From an uncultured Oscillospiraceae bacterium (GTDB lineage Bacteria; Bacillota; Clostridia; Oscillospirales; CAG-382), in assembly GCA_964523005.1 (NCBI GenBank), contig CAZFZL010000001.1:1-32810 (forward strand): a DNA stretch of 32,810 nucleotides, given 5' to 3'. A model generated the notes under the pieces. The model was not told where the DNA came from and made no database searches. It worked only from the letters and a program-made list of their open reading frames with translations. Positions 7,196-32,735 of the stretch are shown here, piece after piece (the first letter of the stretch is position 1; every line of letters begins with the position of its first letter). The translations under genes were made by a program, and so were the position numbers.

Positions 7196-8479
7196 TTATT
7201 TCTTCGTGATTTTTTCAATGCTGCCCATGTACGGACGCAGAGCCGCAGGGATGCTGACGCTGCCGTCGGCGTTGAGGTTGTTTTCGAGAAACGCGATAAG
7301 CATACGCGGCGGCGCGACGACGGTGTTGTTGAGCGTATGGGCAAAATACTTGCTCTTCTCGCCGTTTACACGGATCCTGAGCCTGCGCGCCTGAGCGTCG
7401 CCGAGGTTCGAGCAGCTTCCGACCTCGAAATATTTCTTCTGACGCGGGCTCCACGCCTCTACGTCGCACGATTTAACCTTGAGATCGGCGAGGTCACCGG
7501 AGCAGCATTCGAGCGTGCGCACCGGTATGTCGAGCGTGCGGAAAAAATCGACGGTGTTTTTCCAGAGCTTGTTGTACCAGTCCATGCTCTCCTCCGGTTT
7601 GCAGACGACGATCATTTCCTGCTTTTCAAACTGATGTATGCGGTAGACGCCGCGCTCTTCAATCCCGTGAGCGCCCTTTTCCTTGCGGAAGCAGGGTGAA
7701 TAGCTCGTGAGCGTATAGGGCAGCTCGGATTCGGGTATAGTGGCGTCGATGAATTTGCCTATCATCGAATGCTCGCTCGTGCCTATGAGGTAGAGGTCTT
7801 CGCCTTCGATCTTGTACATCATCGCGTCCATTTCGGCGAACGACATAACGCCCGTCACGACGTCACTGCGTATCATGAAGGGAGGAACACAGTATGTAAA
7901 GCCGCGGCCTATCATGAAATCACGAGCATAGGATATCACCGCCGAATGCAGCCGCGCGATGTCGCCCATGAGATAGTAGAAGCCGTTTCCTGCCACGCGG
8001 CGCGCCGCGTCGAGATCTATGCCGCAAAACGATTCCATTATCTCCGTGTGATACGGTATCTCAAAATCCGGAACGACCGGCTCGCCGAAGCGTTCGTTTT
8101 CGACGTTTTCCGCGTCGCTTCTGCCGATCGGAACGGACGGATCGATGATGTTCGGGATAGTCATCATTATCTTTTTGATTTTTTCGGCAAGCTCCGCTTC
8201 CGTTTTTTCAAGCTCAAGCAGCTGCTGTGCCTGCGAAGCGACGAGAGCCTTTGTCTGCTCGGCTTCGTCTTTTTTGCCTTGTGCCATCATGGCGCCGATC
8301 TGCTTGCTGAGCTTGTTGCGCTGCGCGCGCAGCGTATCGGCGTTCTGTATGGTCTGCCTGTTTTGTCTGTCAAGCTCTATGACCTCATCGACGAGCGGCA
8401 ACTTTGCGTCCTGAAATTTCTTTCTGATGTTTTCCTTTACCGCTTCCGGGTTCTCGCGTAAAAAACGTATATCTATCAT
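7196..8479 (-). CDS. serS: Serine--tRNA ligase
   Basis: 427 aa. N-terminal coiled-coil arm (MIDIRFLRENPEAVKENIRKK...). Class II core motifs: FRKEKGAHG, YRIHQFEKQEM, GSCSNLGDAQARRL, TLNNTVVAPPR. Confidence 0.95.
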   Translation of the reverse strand: MIDIRFLRENPEAVKENIRKKFQDAKLPLVDEVIELDRQNRQTIQNADTLRAQRNKLSKQIGAMMAQGKKDEAEQTKALVASQAQQLLELEKTEAELAEKIKKIMMTIPNIIDPSVPIGRSDAENVENERFGEPVVPDFEIPYHTEIMESFCGIDLDAARRVAGNGFYYLMGDIARLHSAVISYARDFMIGRGFTYCVPPFMIRSDVVTGVMSFAEMDAMMYKIEGEDLYLIGTSEHSMIGKFIDATIPESELPYTLTSYSPCFRKEKGAHGIEERGVYRIHQFEKQEMIVVCKPEESMDWYNKLWKNTVDFFRTLDIPVRTLECCSGDLADLKVKSCDVEAWSPRQKKYFEVGSCSNLGDAQARRLRIRVNGEKSKYFAHTLNNTVVAPPRMLIAFLENNLNADGSVSIPAALRPYMGSIEKITKK

Positions 8480-8511
8480 ATTACGAATTTCCCTTGTGTG
8501 TATTTTTATCT

Positions 8512-8540
8512 ATTATACAGCGTTTCGCACCTTCTTGCAA
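8512..8540 (-). promoter_or_regulatory. Sigma-A-like promoter for serS (short leader, no T-box)
   Basis: On the minus strand: TTGCAA (8540-8535), 17-nt spacer, TATAAT (8517-8512). About 30 nt of leader before ATG 8479. Confidence 0.55.
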
Positions 8541-8595
8541 GAGGAAACGCAATTTTTTATGACGAAACCTTCATAATATAACCGTATAACGCCTA

Positions 8596-8624
8596 TTGAC
8601 AAGCGCGCCGAATCGGTCTAATAT
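8596..8624 (+). promoter_or_regulatory. Sigma-A-like promoter for the oxidoreductase-nagA pair
   Basis: TTGACA (8596-8601), 17-nt spacer, TAATAT (8619-8624). Confidence 0.6.
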
Positions 8625-8675
8625 ATCATCAGAGGCTTATATGCGCAGTATAATAAACGAATGTGAGGGCTTGAC

Positions 8676-9719
8676 ATGGACAAAATCAAAATAGGCGTGG
8701 TCGGAGCGGGCAACATTTCGACCAACGCGCATCTTCCGGCGTACGCAAAATACGATGGCGCGTCGGTGGAGGCGATATGCGATACAGTGCCTGAGCGCGC
8801 TAAGACAGCTGCTGAGAGATTCAATATACCGCGCTGGTACGGCTCGGTCGAGGAGATGCTCGAAGGCTGTGAGCTCGATGCGGTGGACATATGTACATGG
8901 AACAACGGTCACAGCACCGTTGCGGTAAGCGCAGCTTGTGCCGGCAAGCACATAATGTGCGAAAAGCCTATGGCGCGCACGATGACGGAAGCGCAGGCAA
9001 TGGCGGACGCGGTGAGAAATAACAAGGTCAAATTCATGCTCGCCGTCCCGAACCGTTCGTGCGGCGAAAACAGAAAAGCGCGTGAGCTTATCGAAAGCGG
9101 CGCGCTGGGCGACATATATTTTGCGAGAACATCAGCCGTGAGGCGGCGCGGCACGCCTACGGGCTGGTTTACTGATTTCAAAACGTCCGGCGGCGGCCCG
9201 ATCATCGATATCGGCGTACACCGGATCGACGCGGCGTGGTATCTGATGGGCTGTCCGAAGCCGGTGTCGGTCACTGCCGCGACGTCAAACAGAATAGGCG
9301 ATTATCAGACGAAGGGTGTCGGGCGTTGGCAGGGAACGCCGTGTCCTGACAATAAATTTGATGTCGAGGACTCCGGGGCAGGCTGTATACGCTTTGAGAA
9401 CGGTGCGATAATGCTGTTCGAAGCAACGTGGGCGATAAACGCACCTGACAGCAGCGAAACGCTCGTGTGCGGCAGCAAAGCCGGAATAAGGCTCAGCCCC
9501 CTTACCGTTTTCGGCGAGAAGGACGACTATCTCAGCGACGAAAAGATCGACGCGCACGCCGACGGCGAAGATGTGTTTCTCAATGAGATCGAGGCGTTCT
9601 GCGATTACCTGCGCGGAAAATGCCCGTCGCGCGTACCGCTCGACCAGGCGCTGACGCTCCAGTCGATGCTCAACGCCGCCTATGAATCTGCAAAAACGGG
9701 GAAAGAAATAATACTGTAA
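8676..9719 (+). CDS. Gfo/Idh/MocA family NAD(P)-dependent oxidoreductase
   Basis: 347 aa. N-terminal Rossmann motif MDKIKIGVVGAGNISTNAHLPAY, the conserved EKPMA motif (CEKPMARTMTEA), and a C-terminal alpha/beta domain. GAGGG RBS. Confidence 0.85.
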   Translation: MDKIKIGVVGAGNISTNAHLPAYAKYDGASVEAICDTVPERAKTAAERFNIPRWYGSVEEMLEGCELDAVDICTWNNGHSTVAVSAACAGKHIMCEKPMARTMTEAQAMADAVRNNKVKFMLAVPNRSCGENRKARELIESGALGDIYFARTSAVRRRGTPTGWFTDFKTSGGGPIIDIGVHRIDAAWYLMGCPKPVSVTAATSNRIGDYQTKGVGRWQGTPCPDNKFDVEDSGAGCIRFENGAIMLFEATWAINAPDSSETLVCGSKAGIRLSPLTVFGEKDDYLSDEKIDAHADGEDVFLNEIEAFCDYLRGKCPSRVPLDQALTLQSMLNAAYESAKTGKEIIL

Positions 9720-14156: not shown

Positions 14157-15110
14157 ATGATTATGGCGGATAGAATACTCGTCGTCGGAAGCGCCAATAT
14201 GGATTTTATCATGAGATGCGACCGTTTGCCCTGTGCAGGCGAGACGATAATGTCCTATGATGGCTACGATTACGCGGCAGGCGGCAAGGGTGCCAACTGT
14301 GCTGTGGCGGCTGCAATGCTCGGCGCAGACGTGTCGTTCTGTACGAGGGTGGGCGAGGACACGCACGGAAAGCGGCTTCGCAAGCTGTATGTCGATTGCG
14401 GCATTGATCCGCGGTTTATACATATCGATTCGGTCATGCAGACGGGACTTGCTGTCGTGATGGTAGAGAGCAGCGGCTCAAACAGGATCGTGGTCTATCC
14501 GGGCGCGAACACGCGCGTGAGCGACCTTGATATAGAGGATGCGTTCACCGCGAATCCGGCGCTTGTGCTGACGCAGTTTGAAATAGGACTCGAAACGGTT
14601 CTGCTGACGGCTAAGCTCGCCGATAAAAAGAACATACCGCTCGTAATAGATGCCGGACCTGCGCGCCGTGATTATCCGCTCGAGCGTATACCGCGCGTCG
14701 AGATATTCAGCCCGAACGAGACTGAGACGGAAATACTCACCGGTATAAAGCCAGTGTCGGTGGAGGACTGTCTGCGCGCGTCGATGGCGCTTTATCAGCG
14801 CACGGAGATGAAATACGTCGTTCTCAAGCTCGGCGACAGAGGCTGCTTTGTGTACGACGGAAAATACTGCGATCTCGTGTCTCCGTTTGACGTTACGGCT
14901 GTCGATACGACGGCTGCCGGCGACGCCTTCACGGCGGCGCTTGCGTACAAATACATAAGCGGCGGCAAGGATATACTCCAGGCGTGCCGTTATGCGAACG
15001 CGGTCGGTGCGCTTACGGTCACGAAGCGCGGCGCCGCTCCCTCTCTTCCGACATCGCAGGATGTTGACGCGTTTCTCAAGGAAAGAAGCGTTTTCGATAC
15101 GGCCGAATGA
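14157..15110 (+). CDS. rbsK: Ribokinase (PfkB family)
   Basis: 317 aa. VVGSANMDF, GGKGANCAVAAAMLG, NETE, DTTAAGDAFTAAL, ANAVGALTVTKRGA. By GAGGAAG spacing, ATG 14163 is the more likely start. Confidence 0.85.
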   Translation: MIMADRILVVGSANMDFIMRCDRLPCAGETIMSYDGYDYAAGGKGANCAVAAAMLGADVSFCTRVGEDTHGKRLRKLYVDCGIDPRFIHIDSVMQTGLAVVMVESSGSNRIVVYPGANTRVSDLDIEDAFTANPALVLTQFEIGLETVLLTAKLADKKNIPLVIDAGPARRDYPLERIPRVEIFSPNETETEILTGIKPVSVEDCLRASMALYQRTEMKYVVLKLGDRGCFVYDGKYCDLVSPFDVTAVDTTAAGDAFTAALAYKYISGGKDILQACRYANAVGALTVTKRGAAPSLPTSQDVDAFLKERSVFDTAE

Positions 15111-16201
15111 TGACGCCGTGCTTTGATACGGGGGCGGATTATTCCGCCTTCGCGGACTCTCTGCTTGCGCTCGAAACGTGGCAGGACAGAATAATCGGCT
15201 CCGGACTGCCCGTGGTGCTGTACGGAACGGGAAAAGGCGCACGGAAAACGACTGCGCTTTTTTTGCGTTCGGGGATAGCGGTGTCCGCTGTCTGTGCAAG
15301 CGAAGGCAGCGCTGCACTCGGCAGCTCGTTTTGCGGAATGCAGGTGAAGACTTATGCGGAATGCGCGAAGGAATTCGGCTCGTTCGTGTGTGTTCCGGCA
15401 TTTGCCGCACGCGGCGACGACATCGCGCTCATAACGGAAATTGCACAAGCGCAGACCGTTGTGATGCCGAATCCGCCGGTGGCAGGCGAGGGCATGTGCG
15501 GAAAAGAAACGCTCGTGCGTTTGGCTGAAACGGCGCGCTTCGTTTACGAACGGCTCGGCGACGGTGAATCACGCAGGGTGCTGTACGAGGTGCTTTCGTT
15601 TGGCATCACCGGCGATATAAATTATCTTGCACGGAAATGTCCGCCGCGGCTCATGACGGTGCATCCGGGAAAACGCTTCATAGACGTCGGCGCTTACGAC
15701 GGCGACACGGCGCTCGAATACGCAAGGCTCTGCCCCGAATACGGCGATATAACGGCGTTTGAGCCGTCAGAAGCCAACTACGCGAAGCTTTGCCGAAGAA
15801 CGGAGGGGCTGCGGATAAAGTGTATTTGTGCGGCGGCGTGGGGGAAGCGCGGCGAGGGGTCTGAGAACGGAAACGACGGCAGAGCCGTCAGCGTCAGCGA
15901 AAAAGGCAGCGGCACAGAGCTGTACGCGCTCGACGGGTTTGGCGAAAACGTCGGGCTCATAAAGATCGACGCCGAGGGCGCGGAACGCGAGGTGCTGTAC
16001 GGCGCGTCAAATACGGTCGCCGCCGGCGGCGACGTGTGCTGCGCTGTGTATCACCGCGCCGACGATATAATAACATTGCCGCGGCTGATGCTGTATTACA
16101 GACCGGACGCGAAAATCTATCTGCGCCGCGAGGAATATCTGCCTGCGTGGGATGTGTTCGCGACGATAACGAAGGAGAACAATGTATGTACGGTGAATTG
16201 A
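15107..16201 (+). CDS. FkbM-family SAM-dependent methyltransferase with N-terminal Rossmann-like extension
   Basis: 364 aa. The ATG overlaps the rbsK TGA (ATGA). C-terminal FkbM signatures: FIDVGAYDGDTALEY, AFEPS, IKIDAEGAEREVL. N-terminal roughly 130 aa contain VVLYGTGKGARK. Confidence 0.7.
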   Translation: MMTPCFDTGADYSAFADSLLALETWQDRIIGSGLPVVLYGTGKGARKTTALFLRSGIAVSAVCASEGSAALGSSFCGMQVKTYAECAKEFGSFVCVPAFAARGDDIALITEIAQAQTVVMPNPPVAGEGMCGKETLVRLAETARFVYERLGDGESRRVLYEVLSFGITGDINYLARKCPPRLMTVHPGKRFIDVGAYDGDTALEYARLCPEYGDITAFEPSEANYAKLCRRTEGLRIKCICAAAWGKRGEGSENGNDGRAVSVSEKGSGTELYALDGFGENVGLIKIDAEGAEREVLYGASNTVAAGGDVCCAVYHRADDIITLPRLMLYYRPDAKIYLRREEYLPAWDVFATITKENNVCTVN

Positions 16202-16746
16202 TCACCGAAAAAGACTGCCGCGTGACAGATAAGGCGCGCTCATGCTTTTTCACCGGCCACAGGGATATACCGGAGAGCGAAAGGCAGCCACTTGGCGAAC
16301 GGCTCACGGGCACGCTCGAAAGGCTCGTCAGAGAAGGAACGGATACGTTCTGCGCCGGCGGTGCGATCGGGTTCGATATGCTCGCGGCACAGCGCGTGCT
16401 GAAGCTCAAAGAGAGCGTAAGCGGAATAAAGCTCGTGCTTTTTTTGCCGTGCCGCGATCAGGCATCCGCCTGGACACATGACGAAAGGGAGAAATACGAC
16501 ACCATTCTTGCGCACGCGGACGGAATATACTACGTTTCCGAGCGATATTTCCGGGGATGTATGTATCTGCGCAACAGATGTCTGGCGCAAAACGGCAGCA
16601 CCTGCGTGTGTTACCTCAAAAAGAACTCCGGCGGAACATATTATACAGTCAGGTACGCTTCCGGACGCGGAGCACGCATTATAAATCTTGCAGATGGCTC
16701 GGCGGACGAACAGATGGGATTTTCCGACAGCGTTTTTTTGACGTAA
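16186..16746 (+). CDS. SLOG-superfamily DUF1273 (YpsA-like) protein
   Basis: 186 aa from ATG 16186, with GAAGGAGA 8 nt upstream. Overlaps the methyltransferase gene by 16 nt. Signatures: CFFTGHRD, FCAGGAIGFDMLAAQ, LVLFLPC, YLRNRCL, GGTYYTVRYA. Confidence 0.75.
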   Translation: MYGELITEKDCRVTDKARSCFFTGHRDIPESERQPLGERLTGTLERLVREGTDTFCAGGAIGFDMLAAQRVLKLKESVSGIKLVLFLPCRDQASAWTHDEREKYDTILAHADGIYYVSERYFRGCMYLRNRCLAQNGSTCVCYLKKNSGGTYYTVRYASGRGARIINLADGSADEQMGFSDSVFLT

Positions 16747-16771
16747 AACGGCAAAATGTTTACACAGAGAC

Positions 16772-16800
16772 TTGTTTTTTTCGTATACGCATGATATAAT
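16772..16800 (+). promoter_or_regulatory. Sigma-A-like promoter for the hydrogenase operon
   Basis: TTGTTT (16772-16777), 17-nt spacer, TGaTATAAT (-10 at 16795-16800). Implies a 5' UTR of about 85 nt. Confidence 0.55.
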
Positions 16801-16891
16801 CAATAAGTATGCTGATATCGATATCGCCGCGTTCAGCGACGGCGCGCGCATCAGCCCAATAAGAACAAAACACTGAAAGGGATATCGTACA

Positions 16892-17356
16892 ATGGATGAA
16901 ATCTCGGCAAAAAACAAAGAGCTGAAGGAATGTATCGGACAATACCGCGGCGTGAAGGGCAATCTTATGCCTATAATGCAGAAAGCACAGGAGCTTTTCG
17001 GTTATCTTTCAATGGATACCATGACGCTCATCGCGGACGAACTGAAAATACCGGTAACGGAAGTATACGGCGTTGCGACATTCTACTCGCAGTTTTCGCT
17101 CAATCCGAAGGGTGAGAATGTTGTCAGTGTCTGCACGGGTACGGCCTGCTATGTCAAGGGCGCGTCAGCGATACTTGAACAGGTGCAGTCGGTGCTCGGC
17201 ATAAAGGTCGGTCAGACGACGGCAGACGGAAAATTCTCAATACAGGACACGCGCTGCCTCGGCTGCTGCGGACTCGCGCCGGTAATGGTCATAAACGGAG
17301 ACGTGTACGGACGCCTTGTGCCCGGAGACGTCAAGGGAATTCTTGAAAAGAGATAA
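16892..17356 (+). CDS. hydC: NuoE-like [2Fe-2S] subunit of NAD(P)-linked [FeFe]-hydrogenase (HydC)
   Basis: 154 aa. Thioredoxin-like 2Fe-2S motifs SVCTGTACYVKG and CLGCCGLAPVM. Confidence 0.85.
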   Translation: MDEISAKNKELKECIGQYRGVKGNLMPIMQKAQELFGYLSMDTMTLIADELKIPVTEVYGVATFYSQFSLNPKGENVVSVCTGTACYVKGASAILEQVQSVLGIKVGQTTADGKFSIQDTRCLGCCGLAPVMVINGDVYGRLVPGDVKGILEKR

Positions 17357-17362
17357 CTTTCG

Positions 17363-17704
17363 ATGAAAATCAGCGATATACAGCGTCTGCTTGGTGCAGA
17401 ACTGCTTACGAAAACAGTGAATACCGATCAGGAGGTCTTTTCCGCCTGCGGAAGCGATATGATGAGCGATGTGCTCGCTTTCGTCAAGGAACAGGGCGTG
17501 CTGCTGACGGGGCTGGTGAACTGCCAGGTCGTCAGGACGGCCGACATGATGGATATGGTGTGCGTCGTGTTTGTGCGAGGGAAAAAGCCCTCGCCGGATA
17601 TTATCGCACTCGCGGAGGACTGCGGCATCGCGGTGCTCGCGACGGGAACAAAGATGTTCGAGGCATGCGGCATACTGTACACAAACGGACTTCACAGAAA
17701 ATGA
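17363..17704 (+). CDS. DRTGG-domain protein (copy 1)
   Basis: 113 aa. ACGSDMMSDVLAFV...VLLTGLVN...VVFVRGKKPSPDIIALAEDCGIAVLAT fits the DRTGG fold pattern. 6 nt after hydC. Confidence 0.65.
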   Translation: MKISDIQRLLGAELLTKTVNTDQEVFSACGSDMMSDVLAFVKEQGVLLTGLVNCQVVRTADMMDMVCVVFVRGKKPSPDIIALAEDCGIAVLATGTKMFEACGILYTNGLHRK

Positions 17705-17722
17705 TCGGTATCGGAGGAAGCA

Positions 17723-18148
17723 ATGGGCGAGCCTTATAAGGTAAGCTTCGACGTGGACGGGGAGAACTTTACCTCCGCCGGAGAAGCATCCATTCAGGTC
17801 AAAAAAATATTGCGTCAGCTCGGCTTTGCTCCCGAAACGATACGCCGCGTTTCGATAGCCATGTACGAAGGAGAGATCAACATGGTCATCCACGCCGGCG
17901 GCGGACGCGCGGAGCTTGCCGTTTACGACGATTATATCGAACTCGTGCTCACCGATCACGGGCCGGGGATAGCCGACGTAAACCTTGCTATGCAGGAGGG
18001 CTATTCGACGGCGCTCGAGCAGGTGCGCGCGCTCGGATTCGGAGCGGGCATGGGGCTTCCGAACATGAAAAGGTATACTGACGAGATGATCATAGATACG
18101 AAGCTCGGAGAGGGCACGAGGATCACGATGAGGGTGAAGACGGCATGA
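17723..18148 (+). CDS. RsbW/SpoIIAB-like GHKL ATPase (anti-sigma-type Ser/Thr kinase fold)
   Basis: 141 aa. N box EGEINMVIHA, G1 DHGPGI, G2 GFGAGMGLPNM. No HisKA or sensor domain. GGAGGAAG RBS. Confidence 0.7.
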   Translation: MGEPYKVSFDVDGENFTSAGEASIQVKKILRQLGFAPETIRRVSIAMYEGEINMVIHAGGGRAELAVYDDYIELVLTDHGPGIADVNLAMQEGYSTALEQVRALGFGAGMGLPNMKRYTDEMIIDTKLGEGTRITMRVKTA

Positions 18149-19452
18149 GTGAATATATCCATTCCGTTTCGCTCGACGTGGAAAAATGCAAGGGCTGTAC
18201 CAACTGCCTCAAGCGCTGCCCCACGGAAGCGATCAGCGTCAGGGACGGCCACGCCGAAATAGACGCGTCACGCTGTATCGACTGCGGCGAATGCATCCGC
18301 ATTTGCCCGTATAAAGCAAAAAAAGCAGTATACGATAAGCTTGAAAACGTAAGACAGACGAGCAAATGGCTCATTGCGCTTCCGGCGCCGTCGCTTTACG
18401 GTCAGTTTGACAATCTCGGCGACATCGACTATATAATCCAGGGGCTCAGAGACATCGGCTTCGACGATGTATACGAGGTCAGCGCAGCGGCTGAGATAGT
18501 CTCCGCTTATACGCGGCGCTTTCTAAAGCGTACAGACATAAAAAAACCCGTGATCAGCTCGGCGTGCCCAGTCGTGGTCAGGCTGATAACCCAGCGCTAC
18601 CCGTTCCTTTGCGGCAATATAATGCCGATGCTTCCGCCGGTTGAGATAGCCGCGATGAACGCGAAGGAGCGCGCGCTGAAGCGCCATCCGGAGCTGAAGG
18701 AAGAAGACATATGCGCGTGCTTCATATCGCCGTGCCCTGCAAAGGTGGGATACGTCAAGAACAAGCGCAATAGCGACCGCTCGTACGTGGACGCGGTGGT
18801 GTCGGTCGGCGATGTGTACTTTAAGCTGCTTGACGTTATGAACAAGGCGAAAATGCCGCCTCCCGTGTCCAACACTGGTATAATCGGTATAGGCTGGGCA
18901 TCGACCGGCGGCGAAGCGACAGCGCTTTTCAACGATAAATACCTCGCAGCCGACGGTATAGAAAACGTCATAAAGGTGCTTGAAGAGATAGACAACGACA
19001 ACTTTACCGGGCTTGAATTCATCGAGCTCAACGCCTGCAGCGGCGGCTGTGTCGGCGGCGTTATGACCGTCGAGAACCCGTACATCGCACAGGCGCGTCT
19101 ACAGATGCTCAAGCGCTACCTGCCCGTTTCGCAAAACTGGGTCAGGTCGGAGGGTGAGACGGACGACGGATACATCCCGGACAAATATTTTATTAAAAAC
19201 AATATCGAATACGACCCGACCGCCTATCTTGACAGCGACCGCAACGAAGCGATGAAGAAGATGAAAAAGATAGAAAAGCTCAACGAGACGCTTCCGGCGC
19301 TCGACTGCGGCTTCTGCGGTGCGCCGACCTGCCGCGCTTTTGCGGAGGACGTCGTGCGAAGCGGCGTGAGCGTGGATGACTGCGTTATCCATGTGAGGGA
19401 AATGGTCAAAAAATATAACGAAGAACACAAGAGCACAGGCGAAAACAAGTAA
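18145..19452 (+). CDS. hydS: HydS-type non-canonical (putative sensory, group D / M2e-like) [FeFe]-hydrogenase
   Basis: 435 aa. N-terminal 2x CxxCxxCxxxCP ferredoxin motifs. H-domain has degenerate motifs SSACP (L1), SPCPAK (L2), ELNACSGGCVGGV (L3). C-terminal Cx2Cx4Cx16C (CGFCGAPTC...C). No PAS domain. The ATG overlaps the upstream TGA. Confidence 0.75.
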   Translation: MSEYIHSVSLDVEKCKGCTNCLKRCPTEAISVRDGHAEIDASRCIDCGECIRICPYKAKKAVYDKLENVRQTSKWLIALPAPSLYGQFDNLGDIDYIIQGLRDIGFDDVYEVSAAAEIVSAYTRRFLKRTDIKKPVISSACPVVVRLITQRYPFLCGNIMPMLPPVEIAAMNAKERALKRHPELKEEDICACFISPCPAKVGYVKNKRNSDRSYVDAVVSVGDVYFKLLDVMNKAKMPPPVSNTGIIGIGWASTGGEATALFNDKYLAADGIENVIKVLEEIDNDNFTGLEFIELNACSGGCVGGVMTVENPYIAQARLQMLKRYLPVSQNWVRSEGETDDGYIPDKYFIKNNIEYDPTAYLDSDRNEAMKKMKKIEKLNETLPALDCGFCGAPTCRAFAEDVVRSGVSVDDCVIHVREMVKKYNEEHKSTGENK

Positions 19453-19468
19453 AGAAGGAAGCACGGGA

Positions 19469-19801
19469 ATGAACGTAAAAGAGCTTGCCGAAGCCGAAAA
19501 CCTCGAAATACTTGCGCTTCCGGATCCGAATGCGCAGGCGCAGGGCGTTTATACGGGCGATCTTCTCAGCTATGTCATGGGGCGTGTGAGCGCCGGTGAA
19601 TGCTGGGTGACGATCATGGACAACATCAACGTCCTTGCCGTCGCGTCGCTCGCCGGATGCGCGTGCGTTGTGCTTGCGGAAAACGCACCGGCGTCGGAGG
19701 AGTTTATAAAAACGGCAGAAGCCAAGGACGTCAACGTGCTGCGCAGCTCCGACACATCGGCGAAGCTGTGCTGCGTGCTCGGACGCCGCTTCGGAATGTG
19801 A
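19469..19801 (+). CDS. DRTGG-domain protein (copy 2)
   Basis: 110 aa. YTGDLLSYVMGRV...WVTIMDNINVLAVASLAGCACVVLAENAPASEEFIKTAEAKDVNVL. GAAGGAAG RBS. Confidence 0.6.
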   Translation: MNVKELAEAENLEILALPDPNAQAQGVYTGDLLSYVMGRVSAGECWVTIMDNINVLAVASLAGCACVVLAENAPASEEFIKTAEAKDVNVLRSSDTSAKLCCVLGRRFGM

Positions 19802-19802
19802 T

Positions 19803-20543
19803 ATGTTCATCGATTACAGCTACGACCTTCATATACACTCGTGTCTGTCGCCGTGCGGCGACGAAGATATGACCGTCAACAACATTGCCGGCATGGCGGC
19901 GCTCAACCGATTGAGCATCGCGGCGCTGACAGACCACAACAGCTCGAAAAACTGCCCGGCGTTCTATACGGCGTGCCGCCGCAACGGCGTCGTGCCCGTG
20001 GCAGGCATGGAGCTGACGACGGCGGAGGAAATACATCTGATATGTCTGTTCGAGCTTCTTGAGCAGGCTGCGGAATTTGATGAAAAAGTATACGCGTGCC
20101 TTCCGGACGTGAAAAACCGTGAGAGTATATTCGGACAGCAGCTTATTCTTGACGACTGTGACAACGTGATCGGAAAAGAAGAGAAGCTGCTCATAAACGC
20201 GACGACGCTCTCGCTTGCGGACGCGTGGACGCTCGTGAAAAAATGCGAAGGTGTGTGCTATCCGGCGCATATCGACCGTGAGGCGAACGGCATCGTGGCG
20301 ATACTCGGCACGTTCCCCGAAAAGCCGGAGTTCGGCTTCTATGAGCTTAACAACGCGGATAATTACGATAAATACAGGGAAGAATACCCCATATTGAAAA
20401 AACTGAAAATGCTTTCCTGCTCGGACGCACATTACCTTTATAATATAAACGAAGCCGTAAACACCGTTGCTCTTCCCGACAGGGCGGGCAGCGCTGAAAT
20501 AAGACACGAGCTTTTCGGATATATCAGGGGGCAAACGCAGTGA
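19803..20543 (+). CDS. PHP-domain metal-dependent phosphoesterase
   Basis: 246 aa. PHP motifs DLHIHS, LTDHNS, GMELT, PAHIDR, CSDAH. Starts 1 nt after the upstream stop. Confidence 0.8.
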   Translation: MFIDYSYDLHIHSCLSPCGDEDMTVNNIAGMAALNRLSIAALTDHNSSKNCPAFYTACRRNGVVPVAGMELTTAEEIHLICLFELLEQAAEFDEKVYACLPDVKNRESIFGQQLILDDCDNVIGKEEKLLINATTLSLADAWTLVKKCEGVCYPAHIDREANGIVAILGTFPEKPEFGFYELNNADNYDKYREEYPILKKLKMLSCSDAHYLYNINEAVNTVALPDRAGSAEIRHELFGYIRGQTQ

Positions 20544-21073
20544 GAGAGCTTTCACTCAACATTCTCGACATAGCGCAGAATTCCGTCAAGGCAGGAGCGC
20601 AGCATATCGATATAACGCTCATGGAGACGGATGAGCTGTTCACGTTTGCCGTAAAAGACGATGGCTGCGGGATGAGCGAAGAGCTGCTCGCGCGCGTGAA
20701 AGACCCGTTCACCACCACACGCACCACGCGCAAGGTCGGGCTTGGGATCCCGTTCCTCACGCTTGCTGCCAGACAGACGGGCGGCGACGTGACGATCGAA
20801 TCGTCCGTAAGCCCGAATACGCATGGAACGCTGCTCGAAGCAAGTTTTTATAAAAAGCACATAGACTTCACACCGCTCGGTGATATAATATCGACCGTCG
20901 TAACGCTCATACAGGGCAACCCGGACAGGGACATCACGTTTACTCATGATATGTGCGGGACGGTAATACGGCTTTCGACGGCGGAAATGCGTGAGATGCT
21001 CGGCAGCGTGCCGCTCTCGGAGCCGGACGTGCTCGTGTGGATACGCGAATACCTGACGGAACAATACGGATAA
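20540..21073 (+). CDS. GHKL/HATPase_c ATP-binding protein (kinase catalytic domain only)
   Basis: 177 aa. The GTG start overlaps the PHP stop (GTGA). N box LDIAQNSVKAGA, G1 DDGCGM, G2 GLGIPFL. No phosphoacceptor (HisKA) domain. Confidence 0.7.
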   Translation: MRELSLNILDIAQNSVKAGAQHIDITLMETDELFTFAVKDDGCGMSEELLARVKDPFTTTRTTRKVGLGIPFLTLAARQTGGDVTIESSVSPNTHGTLLEASFYKKHIDFTPLGDIISTVVTLIQGNPDRDITFTHDMCGTVIRLSTAEMREMLGSVPLSEPDVLVWIREYLTEQYG

Positions 21074-21114
21074 ATAAAATAAAATATATAAATCCGAAAG
21101 GAAGAAAAGAAAAC

Positions 21115-21486
21115 ATGAAATCACTCGCTGAACTCGCAGCAATCAAAGAAAGGATGCAGGGCAAGGTCGCGCTTCGCGAAGGCTCGGGAGAAACCCGGAT
21201 CGTCGTAGGCATGGCAACGTGCGGCATCGCGGCAGGCGCAAGGCCGGTGCTCAACACCTTCGTGGAAGAGATAGCGAAAGAAAACCTCACCGACAGAGTT
21301 ACGGTCACTCAGACGGGCTGCATCGGAATATGTCAGTTTGAACCGGTAGTCGAGGTCTACGAAAGCGGCAAGGAAAAGGTCACTTACGTTAAGATGACGG
21401 CGGACAAAGCGAAGAGGGTCGTTGCCGAGCACATCAAGGGCGGCAAGGTCGTTTCCGAGTATACAATAGGAAATACTAAGATATAG
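21115..21486 (+). CDS. Thioredoxin-like [2Fe-2S] ferredoxin (HydD-like small subunit)
   Basis: 123 aa from ATG 21115 (GGAAG RBS). VVGMATCGIAAGA ... GCIGICQFEPVV. Confidence 0.8.
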   Translation: MKSLAELAAIKERMQGKVALREGSGETRIVVGMATCGIAAGARPVLNTFVEEIAKENLTDRVTVTQTGCIGICQFEPVVEVYESGKEKVTYVKMTADKAKRVVAEHIKGGKVVSEYTIGNTKI

Positions 21487-21499
21487 GAGAACATGACAG

Positions 21500-23290
21500 A
21501 TGATTCGTGCACATGTAATGATCTGCGGCGGCACAGGCTGCACATCCTCAGGCAGCGACAAGCTCGCGGCGGCGCTTGAAACAGAGCTTAAGACGAGAGG
21601 GCTTGAGGAAGAAATAAAGGTCGTAAGGACAGGCTGCTTCGGCCTGTGCGCGCTCGGCCCGATAATGATAGTTTATCCCGACGGTACGTTTTACATCAGG
21701 GTAACGCCTGATGATATTCCTGAGATCGTCGAAGAACACCTGCTCAAGGGCAGAGTCGTGCAGAGACTCGTCTATGACGATTCCGGCGTACCGGACATCA
21801 AGGCGAACTCGCTCAACGAGACGGGCTTCTATAAGAAGCAGAAGAGAGTCGCGCTGCGCAACTGCGGCGTTATCAACCCCGAAGAAATCGACGAGTACAT
21901 AGCTCTCGACGGTTACAGAGCGCTCGGTAAAGTTCTTACCGAAATGACTCCGGACCAGGTCATCCAGACCATTCTCGACAGCGGGCTGCGCGGCAGAGGC
22001 GGCGGCGGATTCCCGACCGGCCGTAAATGGATGTTTGCCGCGAAGGTACCGTCCGACAAGAAATATGTCGTATGTAACGCCGATGAGGGCGACCCCGGCG
22101 CATTCATGGACCGTTCGGTGCTTGAAGGCGATCCGCACGCAGTCATAGAGGCTATGGCTATTGCAGGCTATGCGATAGGCGCAGACGAAGGCTATATCTA
22201 CGTCAGAGCCGAATACCCGATAGCTATCAAACGCCTTGAGATCGCAATACGCGAGGCGCGCGAATACAATTTGCTCGGCAAGGACATATTCGGCACAGGC
22301 TTCAACTTCGACATCACGCTTCGCTTCGGCGCAGGCGCGTTCGTCTGCGGTGAAGAAACGGCGCTGCTCACCTCGATAGAAGGCAAGCGCGGCGAGCCGC
22401 GTCCGAGACCTCCGTTCCCGGCGGTCAAGGGTCTGTTCGGTCAGCCTACGATAATCAATAACGTTGAAACACTCGCAAACATCGCACAGATTATACTCAA
22501 GGGCGCGGACTGGTTCGCTTCCATGGGTACTGAAAAGTCGAAGGGCACGAAGGTCTTTGCGCTCGGCGGCAAGATAAACCACACCGGACTCGTTGAGATC
22601 CCGATGGGCACGACGCTGCGCGAGATAATATATGACATCGGCGGCGGTATCCCGAACGGCAAGAAATTCAAGGCGGCTCAGACCGGCGGCCCGTCCGGCG
22701 GCTGTATCCCGGCTTCGCATCTTGACACGCCGATCGATTACGATTCGCTCATAGCTATCGGCTCGATGATGGGTTCAGGCGGACTTATCGTCATGGATGA
22801 AGACAACTGCATGGTCGACATAGCGAAATTCTTCCTTGAATTCACGGTCGACGAATCGTGCGGCAAATGCGCACCGTGCCGTATCGGTACAAGAAGGATG
22901 CTTGAGATACTCGAACGCATAACGAACGGTCAGGGTCAGGACGGCGATATCGAGAAGCTCGAAGAGCTTGCCATGAATATAAAAACATCGGCGCTCTGCG
23001 GACTCGGTCAGACGGCTCCGAACCCGGTGCTCAGCACGCTGCGGTATTTCCGCGACGAATACGAAGCTCATATCTATGAGAAACGCTGCCCGGCGCACCA
23101 CTGCAAGAAGCTTGCCGTGATCTCCATCAATCCGGAAAAATGCAAGGGCTGCTCCGCGTGCTCGCGCGCATGTCCGGTAGAAGCTATCAGCGGCGAGATA
23201 AAGAAGCCGTTCGTCATAGACCAGTCCAAGTGCATCAAGTGCCGCACCTGCATTGATAAGTGCAGATTCGGTGCGATAGAAATAAAGTAA
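21500..23290 (+). CDS. hydB: NuoF-like flavoprotein subunit of bifurcating-type [FeFe]-hydrogenase (HydB)
   Basis: 596 aa. N-terminal 2Fe-2S (ICGGTGC...GCFGLCALGP). FMN/NADH site GRGGGGFPTGRKW. N3-type CGKCAPCRIG. Two C-terminal CxxCxxCxxxC ferredoxin motifs. Confidence 0.9.
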   Translation: MIRAHVMICGGTGCTSSGSDKLAAALETELKTRGLEEEIKVVRTGCFGLCALGPIMIVYPDGTFYIRVTPDDIPEIVEEHLLKGRVVQRLVYDDSGVPDIKANSLNETGFYKKQKRVALRNCGVINPEEIDEYIALDGYRALGKVLTEMTPDQVIQTILDSGLRGRGGGGFPTGRKWMFAAKVPSDKKYVVCNADEGDPGAFMDRSVLEGDPHAVIEAMAIAGYAIGADEGYIYVRAEYPIAIKRLEIAIREAREYNLLGKDIFGTGFNFDITLRFGAGAFVCGEETALLTSIEGKRGEPRPRPPFPAVKGLFGQPTIINNVETLANIAQIILKGADWFASMGTEKSKGTKVFALGGKINHTGLVEIPMGTTLREIIYDIGGGIPNGKKFKAAQTGGPSGGCIPASHLDTPIDYDSLIAIGSMMGSGGLIVMDEDNCMVDIAKFFLEFTVDESCGKCAPCRIGTRRMLEILERITNGQGQDGDIEKLEELAMNIKTSALCGLGQTAPNPVLSTLRYFRDEYEAHIYEKRCPAHHCKKLAVISINPEKCKGCSACSRACPVEAISGEIKKPFVIDQSKCIKCRTCIDKCRFGAIEIK

Positions 23291-23303
23291 TCGGGAGGAA
23301 ATA

Positions 23304-25052
23304 ATGATGAACACAGTAAATATAACCATTGACGGCATCAAAGTGACGGTTCCTGCCGATTACACTGTGCTTGAAGCCGCGAAGGAAGCAAAGGTATATA
23401 TACCTACGCTCTGCTACCTCAAGGGCATCAACCAGATAGGCGCGTGCCGCATGTGTCTTGTTGAGGCATCGGGAACGAGAGGGCTTGCCGCCGCGTGCGT
23501 GCTGCCCGTTACCGACGGCATGACGGTCACGACGAACAACGATAAGATACGCAAGGCAAGAAAATCCACACTCGAGCTGCTTCTCTCAAACCACAACAGA
23601 GAATGCACGTCCTGCATCAGATCAAGAAACTGCGAATTTCAGACGCTCTGCAACGAATACGGCGTTGACGGATACCCGTACGACGGCGCGAAGACGGAAT
23701 CGACGATCGATGACGTCAGCCCGTCAATCGTCAGAGACAACAGCAAATGTATACTCTGCCGCCGCTGTGTTGCAGCGTGCAACGACGTTCAGAAGATAGG
23801 CGCGATAGGCGTCGGACGCAGAGGCTTCAAGACGAGAGTCGGATGCATCTACGACAAGTCGCTCGCCGATTCACCGTGCGTTAACTGCGGACAGTGCATC
23901 GCCGCGTGCCCGACGGGCGCGCTCCACGAAAAGGACAGCACGGCAGACGTTTGGAAGGCACTTGCCGATCCGGATAAATATGTCGTCGTTCAGCCCGCGC
24001 CTGCCGTAAGAGCAGCGCTCGGCGAAGAATTCGGAATGCCGGTCGGAACGTGTGTCACGGGCAAGCTTGCGGCTTCGCTTCGCCGTCTCGGCTTTGATAA
24101 GGTGTTCGACACTGACTTCGCTGCCGACCTTACGATCATGGAAGAGGGCACGGAATTCCTCGGAAGGATCAAGAATAACGGTGTGCTTCCGATGATCACG
24201 TCATGCTCGCCCGGCTGGATCAAATACTGCGAGACGTTCTACCCCGAATTTATACCGAACCTCAGCTCCTGCAAATCACCGCACGAGATGATGGGTGCTG
24301 TAATAAAAACGTATTTTGCCGAAAAGAACAACATCGATCCCGAAAAGATATACACTGTATCGGTCATGCCTTGCACCGCGAAGAAGTTTGAAGCAAAGCG
24401 CGGCGAGCTCGGACGTGACGGCATACAGGACGTTGACGCCGTTATCACGACCCGCGAGCTCGCGAGGATGATAAGAACGGCAGGCATCGATTTCACGGAG
24501 CTTGACGACGAGGATTTCGACGATGTGCTCGGCGAATCGACCGGCGCAGGTGTCATATTCGGAGCTACGGGCGGCGTTATGGAAGCGGCTCTTCGTACAG
24601 TGTACGAGGTCGTCACCGGAAAGACGCTCGAAAACGTCAACTTTGAGGCTGTAAGAGGAACCGAAGGCGTTAAGGAAGCGACGATCGACGTCGGCGGCAC
24701 CCCCGTAAGAGTGGCTGTCGCGAACGGTACGGGAAATGCTTCAGCACTGCTTGAAAAGGTCAAGAGCGGCGAGAAGCATTACGATTTCATCGAGATCATG
24801 GGCTGCCCGGGTGGCTGCGTGACCGGCGGCGGTCAGCCGATACTCACCGCGAAGCAGCAGCTTTCGCTCGACGCGAAAACGCTCAGAGCATCGGCTCTCT
24901 ACAAAGAAGACGAGGGCAAGACGCTCCGCAAGTCGCACGAGAACCCCTCCATCAAAAAAATCTACGCGGAATTCTTTGGAGAGCCTAACAGCCATAAAGC
25001 GCACGAGCTTCTTCATACATCATATGTACCGAGGAAGAAATACAACATCTGA
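23304..25052 (+). CDS. hydA: [FeFe]-hydrogenase catalytic subunit (HydA, M3/CpI-like architecture)
   Basis: 582 aa. 2Fe-2S (CYLKG..GACRMCLVE), His-ligated 4Fe-4S (HNRECTSCIRSRNC), two ferredoxin motifs. H-cluster motifs MPCTAKKFE and EIMGCPGGCVTGGGQP. L1 reads TSCSPGW instead of TSCCPGW. Confidence 0.9.
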   Translation: MMNTVNITIDGIKVTVPADYTVLEAAKEAKVYIPTLCYLKGINQIGACRMCLVEASGTRGLAAACVLPVTDGMTVTTNNDKIRKARKSTLELLLSNHNRECTSCIRSRNCEFQTLCNEYGVDGYPYDGAKTESTIDDVSPSIVRDNSKCILCRRCVAACNDVQKIGAIGVGRRGFKTRVGCIYDKSLADSPCVNCGQCIAACPTGALHEKDSTADVWKALADPDKYVVVQPAPAVRAALGEEFGMPVGTCVTGKLAASLRRLGFDKVFDTDFAADLTIMEEGTEFLGRIKNNGVLPMITSCSPGWIKYCETFYPEFIPNLSSCKSPHEMMGAVIKTYFAEKNNIDPEKIYTVSVMPCTAKKFEAKRGELGRDGIQDVDAVITTRELARMIRTAGIDFTELDDEDFDDVLGESTGAGVIFGATGGVMEAALRTVYEVVTGKTLENVNFEAVRGTEGVKEATIDVGGTPVRVAVANGTGNASALLEKVKSGEKHYDFIEIMGCPGGCVTGGGQPILTAKQQLSLDAKTLRASALYKEDEGKTLRKSHENPSIKKIYAEFFGEPNSHKAHELLHTSYVPRKKYNI

Positions 25053-25064
25053 TCTGCGTTCATC

Positions 25065-25091
25065 AGGGCTTGCCGGCGGCAAGCCCTTTTG
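25065..25091 (+). terminator. Intrinsic terminator after hydA
   Basis: agggcttgcc / ggcaagccct stem followed by TTTT. Confidence 0.7.
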
Positions 25092-25124
25092 CGTTCATTC
25101 AGCGGGAAAGGAAACGGTCAGGTC

Positions 25125-25808
25125 ATGGAAAAAACGTACTTCGGATATACTGCTTCTCAGATAATATCAAAAACGGACCATACGCTTCTCGGCAGGACCG
25201 CAACGCTTGAGCAGCTCGATAAGGTATGCTGTGAAGCGCTTGAATACGGTGCGGCAAGCGTGTGCATACCGCCGTGCTTTGTGAAAACGGCGCGCGCATA
25301 TGACGGTAAACTTACAGTCTGCACCGTTATCGGTTTCCCTAACGGCTATTCGACATCGCGCATGAAGAGCTTCGAGGCTCGGTGCGCTGTCGAGGACGGG
25401 GCGGACGAGATCGATATGGTCATCAATACAAATTATGTGCGAATGGGCAGATACGCTGACGCGCTTGCCGAGATCAACGAAGTCAAACGCGCCTGTGATT
25501 GGAAAACGCTCAAGGTGATAATAGAAACGTGTCTGCTGACGCAGAGCGAGAAGATCAACGCCGCGAGAACGGTATCCGAATCGGACGCCGATTATATCAA
25601 AACGTCCACCGGTTTTTCAACGGGCGGCGCGACGCGCGAGGACGTGGCGCTTCTTAAGGCATACTGCAAGGGAAAAAAGCTCAAAGCGGCAGGCGGGATA
25701 AAAACAATAAGAGACGCGGCAGATTTTCTGTCGCTCGGAGCTCATCGGCTAGGCTCAAGCTCATTGCTCGGGATGATATTAAAAGAAGAAAACGATGAAA
25801 AACTATGA
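25125..25808 (+). CDS. deoC: Deoxyribose-phosphate aldolase
   Basis: 227 aa from ATG 25125. IDHTLL-type motif (KTDHTLL), EIDMVIN, the Schiff-base lysine context DYIKTSTGF, KAAGGI. Confidence 0.9.
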   Translation: MEKTYFGYTASQIISKTDHTLLGRTATLEQLDKVCCEALEYGAASVCIPPCFVKTARAYDGKLTVCTVIGFPNGYSTSRMKSFEARCAVEDGADEIDMVINTNYVRMGRYADALAEINEVKRACDWKTLKVIIETCLLTQSEKINAARTVSESDADYIKTSTGFSTGGATREDVALLKAYCKGKKLKAAGGIKTIRDAADFLSLGAHRLGSSSLLGMILKEENDEKL

Positions 25809-26208
25809 ATTTCTTGCCAAAGCCGCGCTTGAGGCGGTGAAGAACGCCTATGCACCTTATTCGCACTATACTGTCGGTGCCGCGCTGTTAACGGCGCAGG
25901 GCAGGATATACACGGGCTGCAACATCGAAAACGCTGCTTACGGTCCGTCTGTGTGCGCTGAGCGCACGGCGCTTTTCAAGGCGGTAAGCGAAGGCGAGCG
26001 TGAGTTCGAAGCGATAGCCGTGGCAGGCGGAAAAGACGGCGAATGCGTTGAATATTTCATGCCGTGCGGCGTGTGCAGACAGGTGCTGGCGGAGTTTTGC
26101 AAAAGCGACTTCGTTATATGCGCTGTATGCAGCGGTGCGCCGACGAAGTTCTATACTCTCGCACAGCTTTTGCCTTATATGTTCTCGAAAAAGAGCATCG
26201 GACAATAA
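25795..26208 (+). CDS. cdd: Cytidine deaminase
   Basis: 137 aa. CAERTALFKAV and PCGVCRQVLAEF zinc-binding motifs. Overlaps deoC by 14 nt. Confidence 0.9.
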   Translation: MKNYEFLAKAALEAVKNAYAPYSHYTVGAALLTAQGRIYTGCNIENAAYGPSVCAERTALFKAVSEGEREFEAIAVAGGKDGECVEYFMPCGVCRQVLAEFCKSDFVICAVCSGAPTKFYTLAQLLPYMFSKKSIGQ

Positions 26209-32651: not shown

Positions 32652-32735
32652 GCGGGTATGGCGGAATTGGCAGACGCGCCGGTCTTAGGAACCGGTTCTT
32701 TATGAGTGTGGGTTCAACTCCCACTATCCGCACCA
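32652..32735 (+). tRNA. tRNA-Leu (anticodon UAG), type II with long variable arm, CCA encoded
   Basis: Acceptor stem GCGGGTA/TATCCGC. Anticodon stem CCGGT/ACCGG with loop CTTAGGA. T arm GTGGGTTCAACTCCCAC. Terminal ACCA. Confidence 0.9.

Follow-up and report, generated by a model that had tools for sequence, protein, structure and literature searches.

A DRTGG/SpoIIAB-like gene cassette accompanies NuoE/NuoF-type diaphorase genes with or without the putative hydrogen sensor HydS

Why does a set of six small signalling-type genes lie inside a HydABC-type hydrogenase operon? The question is raised by a 32,810-nt stretch of DNA from an uncultured Oscillospiraceae bacterium (assembly GCA_964523005.1, contig CAZFZL010000001.1), called the window throughout and meant at its full length, in which DRT1, ATPa, HydS, DRT2, PHP and ATPb separate hydC from hydD, hydB and hydA. 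A sequence-only reading of the window had described these genes as a signalling cassette with HydS as its candidate H2 sensor. The best explanation of the results presented here is that the six genes, together with HydD, form a self-contained accessory module of the NuoE/NuoF-type (HydC/HydB, 'BfuBC') diaphorase modules in flavin-based electron-bifurcating enzymes, and the cassette proteins are candidate signalling partners of the putative H2 sensor HydS. As to how the module would act, we tentatively favour, at less than even confidence, a phospho-switch that resembles partner switching and has the diaphorase module as its target.

The association with the diaphorase module was revealed by loci distant from the window. 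Single look-ups of distant DRT1 or fusion proteins yielded 12 loci from lineages that include Mcinerneyibacteriota, Spirochaetes, Hydrothermia and Bipolaricaulaceae, the genes of which were confirmed by hidden Markov models built from the orthologues of 80 related loci (L081–L090) or read from Pfam tables (L091 and L092). All 12 loci contain DRT1 and ATPa (as separate or fused genes) and a DRT2-type gene adjoining NuoE/NuoF-type genes, and 11 of them also contain PHP, ATPb and HydD; in L083, L085 and L087 the ATPb and hydD genes overlap by 4 nt. The neighbouring catalytic genes encode an [FeFe] HydA in L081, L083, L085, L088 and L091, large and small [NiFe] subunits in L084, L087 and L090, a molybdopterin enzyme of the formate-dehydrogenase type in L082 and L089, and NuoF-GltD fusions in L086 and L092. 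Because the catalytic genes vary while NuoE/NuoF are constant, the constant partner of the cassette appears to be the HydB/HydC(/HydD) diaphorase module of the 'Bfu' family rather than HydS or HydA. HydS is present in seven of the 12 loci, always directly after ATPa, and is missing from five (L083, L084, L087, L091 and L092), in which DRT2 comes after ATPa. Since these five loci retain the other genes, HydS is better regarded as an optional input than as the centre of the cassette, and a view of the cassette as built around it is too narrow. The 12 loci encode no sigma factor and share no recurring regulator, a Fur-like gene occurring in only two of them.

Three of the distant loci show further features. 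L090 (9001-18828) carries a group D [FeFe] HydS and a cassette with a DRT1::ATPa fusion before the genes for NuoE-HydD-HydB, a Fer4-rich HydA-like protein that lacks the H-domain, FlpD/MvhD, and the small and large [NiFe] subunits; it apparently pairs an [FeFe]-type sensor with a [NiFe] catalytic enzyme. L085 and L088, in both of which hydC comes after PHP, have a divergent Fur-family regulator upstream (8399-8818 and 8220-8642, respectively) and a convergent SpoIIE/PP2C gene downstream (17345-18357 and 17334-18354), neighbours that could connect the cassette, in these lineages only, with transcription or classical partner switching.

Closer relatives show the same cassette in a nearly fixed arrangement. 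The ten window proteins were mapped on 80 species-level loci (Oscillospiraceae, Christensenellaceae, Acutalibacteraceae and others; HydS identity of 57–66%), and the ten-gene order was retained in 42 out of 42 complete loci. The hydC gene comes first in 37 of these 42 loci and lies between PHP and ATPb in the other five, so that its separation from hydB and hydA, which had been considered unusual, is the norm of the clade. HydS is always present in this clade and always located between ATPa and DRT2. Median gaps, which rest on heuristic start-codon calls in the related loci, are -4 nt for DRT1-ATPa, HydS-DRT2 and DRT2-PHP and -1 nt for PHP-ATPb. The incomplete loci are consistent with truncation at contig ends, except for L058, where HydS (57-1382), alone among the 80, is not followed by DRT2-PHP-ATPb; this contig begins at HydS, its downstream genes lie on the opposite strand, and its HydS may be a second, unlinked paralogue. 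The window locus is an ordinary member of a very common locus type. Chance open reading frames were rejected as an explanation, as the same genes recur in the same order in 80 species-level genomes.

Profile checks against Pfam and NCBIfam upheld all six domain assignments of the sequence-only reading; DRT1 falls below the DRTGG cut-off but is a paralogue of DRT2. By its profile matches, ATPa is a full-length SpoIIAB/RsbW homologue with putative Ser-kinase activity: it matches HATPase_c_2 (39.2 bits, Pfam), the anti-sigma F factor model TIGR01925 (E 3.9e-15, NCBIfam) and, along its entire length, the SpoIIAB structure 1TIL (E 8.5e-6, PDB). Its N box (YEGEIN), G1 box (DxGPGI) and lid/G2 region (AMQEGYSTA...GFGAGMGLPN) are intact and kept across phyla; like SpoIIAB/RsbW, it is a GHKL protein of ~140 aa that has these three boxes and lacks a DHp domain. 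The gene order DRT1-ATPa-HydS mirrors spoIIAA-spoIIAB-sigF. Moreover, the 275-aa protein P0202 is a natural in-frame DRT1-linker-ATPa fusion with at least 120 relatives of 249–305 aa that cover 93–100% of it at 44–100% identity and come from several lineages, with source names that include Aminicenantales and Thermoanaerobacterales. An AlphaFold model of this fusion, based on 122 sequences, has a predicted local distance difference test score (pLDDT) of 86.2 and a predicted template-modelling score (pTM) of 0.79, with a disordered linker at residues 116-129; because this pTM is reached despite the disordered linker, the model suggests a defined interface between the DRT1 and ATPa domains. The best Foldseek match of the C-terminal (ATPa) half of the model is SpoIIAB (TM 0.83, E 1e-10), followed by RsbW and UsfX, and the SpoIIAB/RsbW structures span TM scores of 0.83-0.86.

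DRT2 exceeds the Pfam DRTGG (PF07085) cut-off of 25.2 with 27.2 bits, and DRT1 lies just under it with 22.8 bits. Profile-profile comparison (hhalign) relates DRT1 to DRT2 with 98.6% probability, the DRTGG structure 2IOJ gives a weak profile match to DRT1 (E 0.012), and three longer relatives carry a DRTGG domain at 35.7-37.5 bits. The window DRT1 contains the motif S-D-M-M-S35-D-V-L, which reads (S/A)D(L/M)(L/M)SDVL among homologues, and DRT2 contains G-D-L-L-S34, which reads GDLLSxV among homologues and is kept in the distant loci; the invariant Ser residues of the two proteins align with each other. By these alignments, DRT1 and DRT2 are paralogues with a common invariant D-L-(L/M)-S motif, which is absent from 2IOJ (AF_1212). 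The DRT1 family comprises 643 clusters at 50% identity (E ≤ 1e-10), nearly all of them stand-alone proteins of ~115 aa. Public sources call stand-alone DRTGG proteins (e.g. P0289, P0290, P0298, P0301 and P0309) 'predicted transcriptional regulator', and these have no detectable DNA-binding domain; our guess is that the name was inherited from multidomain CBS/DRTGG regulators, and it could also be the source of the 'AraC regulator' said to flank TamHydS.

PHP matches the Pfam PHP family with 39.7 bits and has an N-terminal DLHIH motif, and its metal ligands (D44/H45, E70, H78, H156 and D208/H210) do not vary among 15 sequences across phyla. Of the solved structures, the PHP domain of Endonuclease Q comes nearest to it (E 3.7e-15, both halves), although PHP is without the DNA-binding domains of Endonuclease Q (246 aa versus 400 aa); next come TM0559, a Bifidobacterium phosphoesterase, the pAp phosphatase Cv1693, RNase AM and PolC. 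ATPb matches HATPase_c with 47.5 bits, its residues 1-92 match the catalytic (CA) domains of histidine kinases in PDB (E 2e-10), and its N, G1 and G2 boxes are kept across phyla. No significant Pfam family matches its C-terminal ~80 aa (best E 0.062), and a single-sequence AlphaFold model of ATPb was unusable (pLDDT 38.6). A classical two-component system was rejected, as ATPb has a CA domain with no DHp and neither HisKA nor Response_reg is matched in the operon.

HydS contains two Fer4 motifs, Fe_hyd_lg_C (100.8 bits) and a C-terminal FeS domain (PF04060, 45.6 bits, residues 383-414), and no PAS domain was detected in it (Pfam, E ≤ 0.01). Fourteen diverse homologues all keep the H-cluster cysteines C141, C197, C298 and C302, and the C-terminal cluster Cx2Cx4Cx16C (C388/C391/C396/C413) and the motifs ISSACP, FISPCPAK and ELNAC.GGCVGG are likewise invariant in the alignment. 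Compared with the description in PMC8163306, the proton-relay Cys (CpI C299) and Met353/Met497 are replaced (ISSA140CP, FIS195PCPAK and ELN296AC). HydS is by these features a group D (M2e) sensory-type [FeFe]-hydrogenase, in line with the sequence-only reading, which had called it non-canonical and a candidate H2 sensor, with putative functions in H2 sensing and signalling. Proteins of the same architecture fill at least 8000 clusters at 90% identity (E ≤ 1e-20). N296, at the position of CpI Met497, is a nearly invariant Asn in the 14 homologues, with Leu in TamHydS and Ser in TmHydS, and the window clade may tune its H-cluster differently through this residue.

HydD had been taken for a 2Fe-2S ferredoxin. 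The ferredoxin fold is supported by Pfam, but only three cysteines (C36, C69 and C73) are present, compared with four in the homologous N-terminal domain of HydB, which corrects the earlier description. In five distant lineages all three are replaced (by S, E and S) and the GIAAGAR motif, invariant in close and distant orthologues, is retained, which implies that HydD need not be an Fe-S protein. It may lack a cluster in the Cys-less lineages and, judged by these substitutions, may be a regulatory or adaptor protein.

Taken together, the module would most likely be a protein switch that depends on ATP, resembles partner switching and does without a transcription factor of its own. ATPa would bind the upstream DRT1 and probably phosphorylate the invariant Ser of its D-(L/M)-(L/M)-S-D motif (Ser35 in the window), so that DRT1 would fill the role played by STAS antagonists in classical systems. 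Where present, HydS would pass H2 or redox state to the ATPa-DRT1 pair. DRT2, the CA-only ATPb and PHP as a putative reset enzyme would constitute a second arm, genetically tied to HydC, HydD and HydB. The output would fall on the enzyme complex itself, through its activity, its assembly or its association with HydD; we infer both this post-translational output and the direction of signal flow, and place the output on the HydBCD module because no DNA-binding partner was ever found linked. In its broadest form, the proposal describes an unrecognized, multi-phylum control of Bfu/HydABC-type enzymes, in which a STAS-independent DRTGG phospho-switch with a SpoIIAB-like kinase, a PHP reset phosphatase and an optional HydS H2 sensor would gate the NADH/ferredoxin diaphorase directly and post-translationally instead of through transcription; in this full form it is rather unlikely. 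The partner-switching idea was already part of the sequence-only reading. It has become stronger for DRT1-ATPa through SpoIIAB homology, gene order and the fusion; STAS, PP2C and sigma factor, the other components of the classical type, are all missing from the cassette. The suggestion that PHP is a phosphatase of the DRTGG proteins is weakened by its relatives, which are nucleic-acid and nucleotide phosphoesterases.

Several observations weigh against a DRTGG phospho-switch. The only documented role of DRTGG domains is a dimer contact in CBS-pyrophosphatases, and there is no experimental evidence of phosphorylation for any of them. The AlphaFold model does not establish that Ser36 of the fusion is oriented toward the ATP site, and mean-field direct coupling analysis of 201 natural DRT1-ATPa pairs (Meff ~99) was underpowered, gave noisy top pairs and was not used. 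The closest solved relatives of PHP act on DNA, RNA or nucleotides, and no CpsB-type or other protein phosphatase is found among them. Of the module, the fusion locus L089 contains only DRT2, the DRT1::ATPa fusion and HydS, and because PHP, ATPb and HydD are missing from it the two arms are separable. Finally, the locus data still allow an unlinked sigma factor or regulator.

This last point leads to the best surviving alternative, transcriptional control through an unlinked factor, in which ATPa would act as an anti-sigma factor or bind another regulator, DRT1 would be its antagonist, HydS and the second arm would set the switch, and the output would be the hyd operon or a wider regulon. ATPa is indeed closest to SpoIIAB/RsbW by sequence and fold, the fusions carry the annotation 'anti-sigma regulatory factor' in their sources, a role in controlling expression is assumed for group C HydS systems, and an AraC-type regulator is reported beside TamHydS (Land et al.). 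Nevertheless, we consider it unlikely. No sigma factor or DNA-binding protein is encoded among the ten genes: as first noted from the sequence, helix-turn-helix, receiver, sigma-factor, STAS and HisKA domains were all absent from the ten operon proteins (Pfam, E ≤ 0.01). Within the 4-kb flanks of those related loci that had flanking sequence no regulator is conserved, the largest gene family occurring in six of the 50 loci with at least 3 kb upstream; because no gene family recurs there, no regulator appears to be linked to the cassette, and none recurs in the 12 distant loci apart from the two Fur-like genes. No Rex operator lies near the operon (a lone match with three mismatches at 5098 is at chance level), no known riboswitch was found, and the linkage to NuoE/NuoF genes holds whatever the catalytic subunit.

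Nucleotide or energy-charge sensing is less probable again. Here the DRTGG proteins would be dimerising or ligand-responsive adaptors, PHP would degrade an (oligo)nucleotide signal, and the GHKL proteins would serve as ATP/ADP clamps that gate an NADH-linked enzyme, which suits a domain known only from nucleotide-regulated proteins (DRTGG-containing CBS-pyrophosphatases respond to Ap4A), a PHP protein related to Endonuclease Q, Cv1693 and RNase AM, and an ATPb that has no phospho-acceptor domain. However, it is the CBS domains that bind the nucleotides in CBS-pyrophosphatases and there are none here, the nearest relatives of ATPa are protein Ser kinases, and the module contains no cyclase or synthetase for a signal nucleotide. 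The genes could also encode assembly, maturation or repair factors for the flavin and Fe-S module of HydB, HydC and HydD ('maturation' in the sense of Feng et al.), with the GHKL proteins clamping in the manner of chaperones and HydD standing in as a placeholder subunit. The tracking of NuoE/NuoF genes irrespective of catalytic subunit would be explained, as would a HydD that keeps GIAAGAR after losing every Cys in several lineages, but a sensor-type hydrogenase in seven of 12 distant and 80 of 80 close loci points to signalling, no chaperone role is known for SpoIIAB-type proteins, and HydD of Caldanaerobacter is treated as an enzyme protein (HydA-D), unlike Tte0891, and we regard this explanation as improbable. 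Least probable of all is a cascade dedicated to H2 sensing, with HydS at its centre and confined to HydABC, for, although HydS has sensory-type active-site substitutions and never leaves its place between ATPa and DRT2 in the window clade, the HydS-less distant loci that keep the other five genes and the partner enzymes of [NiFe], formate-dehydrogenase and GltD-fusion type make HydS look like an add-on input.

The favoured reading, a phospho-switch on the diaphorase module, is set in an operon of ten genes on one strand in the order hydC-DRT1-ATPa-HydS-DRT2-PHP-ATPb-hydD-hydB-hydA (Table 1). The open reading frame map reproduced exactly the coordinates proposed earlier for the six cassette genes and their spacings, which from hydC onward are 6, 18, -4, 16, 1 and -4 nt, the 4-nt overlaps being ATPa/HydS and PHP/ATPb. 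About 90 nt before hydC there is a promoter-like TTGTTT-17-TGATATAAT, with a -35 element below the threshold of the promoter scan, and the hairpin after hydA is the only terminator-like site on the + strand within 16000-25900; bracketed by these two sites, the ten genes are consistent with one transcription unit. The hydC leader folds no better than shuffled sequences (z = -0.15). HydA scores 924.7 bits against NF040763 (cut-off 765), the Pfam architectures of HydA, HydB and HydC fit HydABC/Bfu enzymes (HydB has an N-terminal [2Fe-2S] domain and a C-terminal 2x[4Fe-4S]), and bifurcation by the HydABC of the window is predicted from this family membership.

Table 1. Features of the operon in the window, followed by the HydD genes that lack Cys in distant loci (positions in the respective locus)
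Feature	Position	Strand	Description
Promoter-like site	16772..16799	+	TTGTTT-17 nt-TATAAT, preceded by TG (extended -10); read from sequence
hydC	16892..17356	+	NuoE-like [2Fe-2S] subunit (BfuC); Pfam 2Fe-2S_thioredx 176 bits; NuoE/HoxE NCBIfam models match
DRT1	17363..17704	+	Stand-alone DRTGG protein
ATPa	17723..18148	+	SpoIIAB/RsbW-like GHKL ATPase, putative Ser kinase
HydS	18145..19452	+	Group D (M2e) putative sensory [FeFe]-hydrogenase
DRT2	19469..19801	+	Second DRTGG protein, DRT1 paralogue
PHP	19803..20543	+	PHP-family metal-dependent phosphoesterase
ATPb	20540..21073	+	Histidine-kinase catalytic (CA) domain without DHp/His domain, plus C-terminal ~80 aa
HydD	21115..21486	+	Small thioredoxin-like ferredoxin-fold protein; Pfam 27.3 bits
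hydB	21500..23290	+	NuoF-like FMN/NADH subunit (BfuB); Complex1_51K 157 bits, NADH_4Fe-4S 122 bits, Fer4
hydA	23304..25052	+	Catalytic [FeFe]-hydrogenase, NADH-dependent/bifurcating type; NF040763, Fe_hyd_lg_C 342 bits
Intrinsic-terminator-like hairpin	25065..25087	+	10 bp stem, 7 GC pairs, then T-rich tail
HydD, L081	2650-3018		Cys-less
HydD, L083	12034-12399		Cys-less
HydD, L084	11667-12200		Cys-less
HydD, L086	5453-5815		Cys-less
HydD, L087	11881-12243		Cys-less

Inside ATPb, at 20862-20889 (+), a sigma-70-like TAGACT-16-TATAAT follows a TG (10/12) ~225 nt upstream of hydD; as a consensus match only, it could be an internal promoter that drives hydD-hydB-hydA apart from the cassette. Upstream of the operon lie genes for a YpsA/SLOG-family protein (16036-16746) and an FkbM-type methyltransferase (15107-16201), and downstream lie deoC, cdd and a nucleoside phosphorylase-like gene, none of which is kept beside the cassette in relatives. 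A tRNA gene (32652-32732, +) is the sole Rfam match of the window. A horizontal-transfer island was rejected, as base composition is uniform across the window.

The linkage of group D (M2e) HydS, a 'histidine kinase' and HydABC has been reported from 2010 on. According to Carere et al. (2012), the 'group D M2e' hydrogenases of Caldicellulosiruptor, C. thermocellum, C. phytofermentans and Thermoanaerobacter precede hydA by exactly seven locus tags, and a survey of the genus Thermoanaerobacter placed the group D-like Tmath_0862 of T. mathranii three genes before Tmath_0865-0869. The native Caldanaerobacter operon reads hydC-tte0891-hydD-hydB-hydA, with Tte0891 called 'hypothetical' and HydD, unlike Tte0891, counted among the four enzyme proteins HydA-D; the NiFe-HydABCSL operon of Acetomicrobium mobile encodes HydD, HydP and HisK, which are reported to be absent from the purified enzyme. 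ATPb occupies the operon slot of 'HisK' and Tte0891. ATPb and HydD are present as the sequence-only reading had listed them; HisK and HydD (A. mobile) and Tte0891 (Caldanaerobacter) had already been named as non-subunit operon genes. The NADH-dependent hydrogenase activity of Caldanaerobacter responds to H2 partial pressure (pH2), as cited in PMC3561251. Group C1 hydrogenases of Hydrogenedentota are reported to carry a fused HATPase_c domain, by analogy a possible lead for ATPa-HydS contact. The literature on the HydS-kinase-HydABC linkage is silent on PHP and on both DRTGG proteins, and the searchable full-text literature yielded nothing relevant on DRTGG together with a hydrogenase or this gene context. 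Hence the linkage is known, but not what the cassette consists of or the logic by which it works: the set of six genes, the DRTGG::SpoIIAB-like fusion, the common Ser motif, and the independence from HydS and from catalytic-subunit type appear to be undescribed in the searchable literature.

HydABC/Bfu enzymes set the balance of H2, NADH and ferredoxin in fermenting anaerobes, from gut Oscillospirales-type bacteria, to which relatives of the window belong, to thermophiles engineered for biofuels. How group D 'sensory' hydrogenases transmit their signal is an explicitly open question, a 2026 paper (PMC13104023) stating, in line with the sequence-only reading, that their interaction partners are still to be identified. 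The present findings bear on it by naming concrete candidates: ATPa (always beside HydS), DRT1 (fused to ATPa and bearing a specific Ser), DRT2, PHP, ATPb and HydD. The presence of the module beyond [FeFe] systems turns the question of 'H2 sensing' into the wider one of 'regulation of bifurcating diaphorase modules', which is testable in existing genetic systems.

Among known systems, HoxBC-HoxJ-HoxA of Cupriavidus necator resembles the cassette in coupling a low-activity hydrogenase, as H2 sensor, to a kinase; however, its PAS histidine kinase and response regulator make it a true two-component system, and the cassette has neither of them. The group C HydS systems of Thermotoga maritima, Ruminococcus albus and Thermoanaerobacterium (HfsABCD) also place a sensor-type [FeFe]-hydrogenase with kinase and phosphatase genes beside catalytic hydrogenases, but use a PAS domain and PP2C (SpoIIE-type) phosphatases, whereas the cassette has no PAS domain and contains PHP, DRTGG and two GHKL proteins. 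TamHydS of T. mathranii shares with the window HydS two N-terminal clusters, an H-domain that lacks the proton-relay Cys, a C-terminal four-Cys cluster and the absence of PAS; its locus lies upstream of a bifurcating HydABC, and the published locus-tag offsets fit the variant with hydC after PHP. It differs in having Leu instead of Asn at the CpI M497 position, and in the window hydC precedes the cassette. HisK/HydD of A. mobile and Tte0891/HydD of Caldanaerobacter subterraneus hold the same operon positions as ATPb/HydD, an equivalence that rests on gene order and on the homologous loci L084, L087, L085 and L088, and neither report describes DRTGG, SpoIIAB-like or PHP genes or a common module. 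The DRTGG domains of CBS-pyrophosphatases (PDB 3L2B/3L31) and AF_1212 (2IOJ) are alike in domain size and in weak, consistent profile matches (E 0.01-0.3), but they do not contain the D-L-M-S-D motif and form dimer contacts inside larger nucleotide-regulated enzymes. A parallel in layout exists with SpoIIAA-SpoIIAB-SpoIIE and RsbV-RsbW-RsbU: ATPa is a GHKL protein of ~140 aa with SpoIIAB homology along its full length and the same fold, a small alpha/beta partner is encoded directly upstream and a 'target' directly downstream, often with overlaps, and, in the manner of RsbU and RsbT, genes for a phosphoesterase and another kinase-like protein lie nearby. Phosphorylation in the cassette is predicted only, and compared with these systems the cassette has DRTGG in place of STAS, PHP in place of PP2C, no sigma factor of its own, and an antagonist-like DRT1 that is often fused to its kinase.

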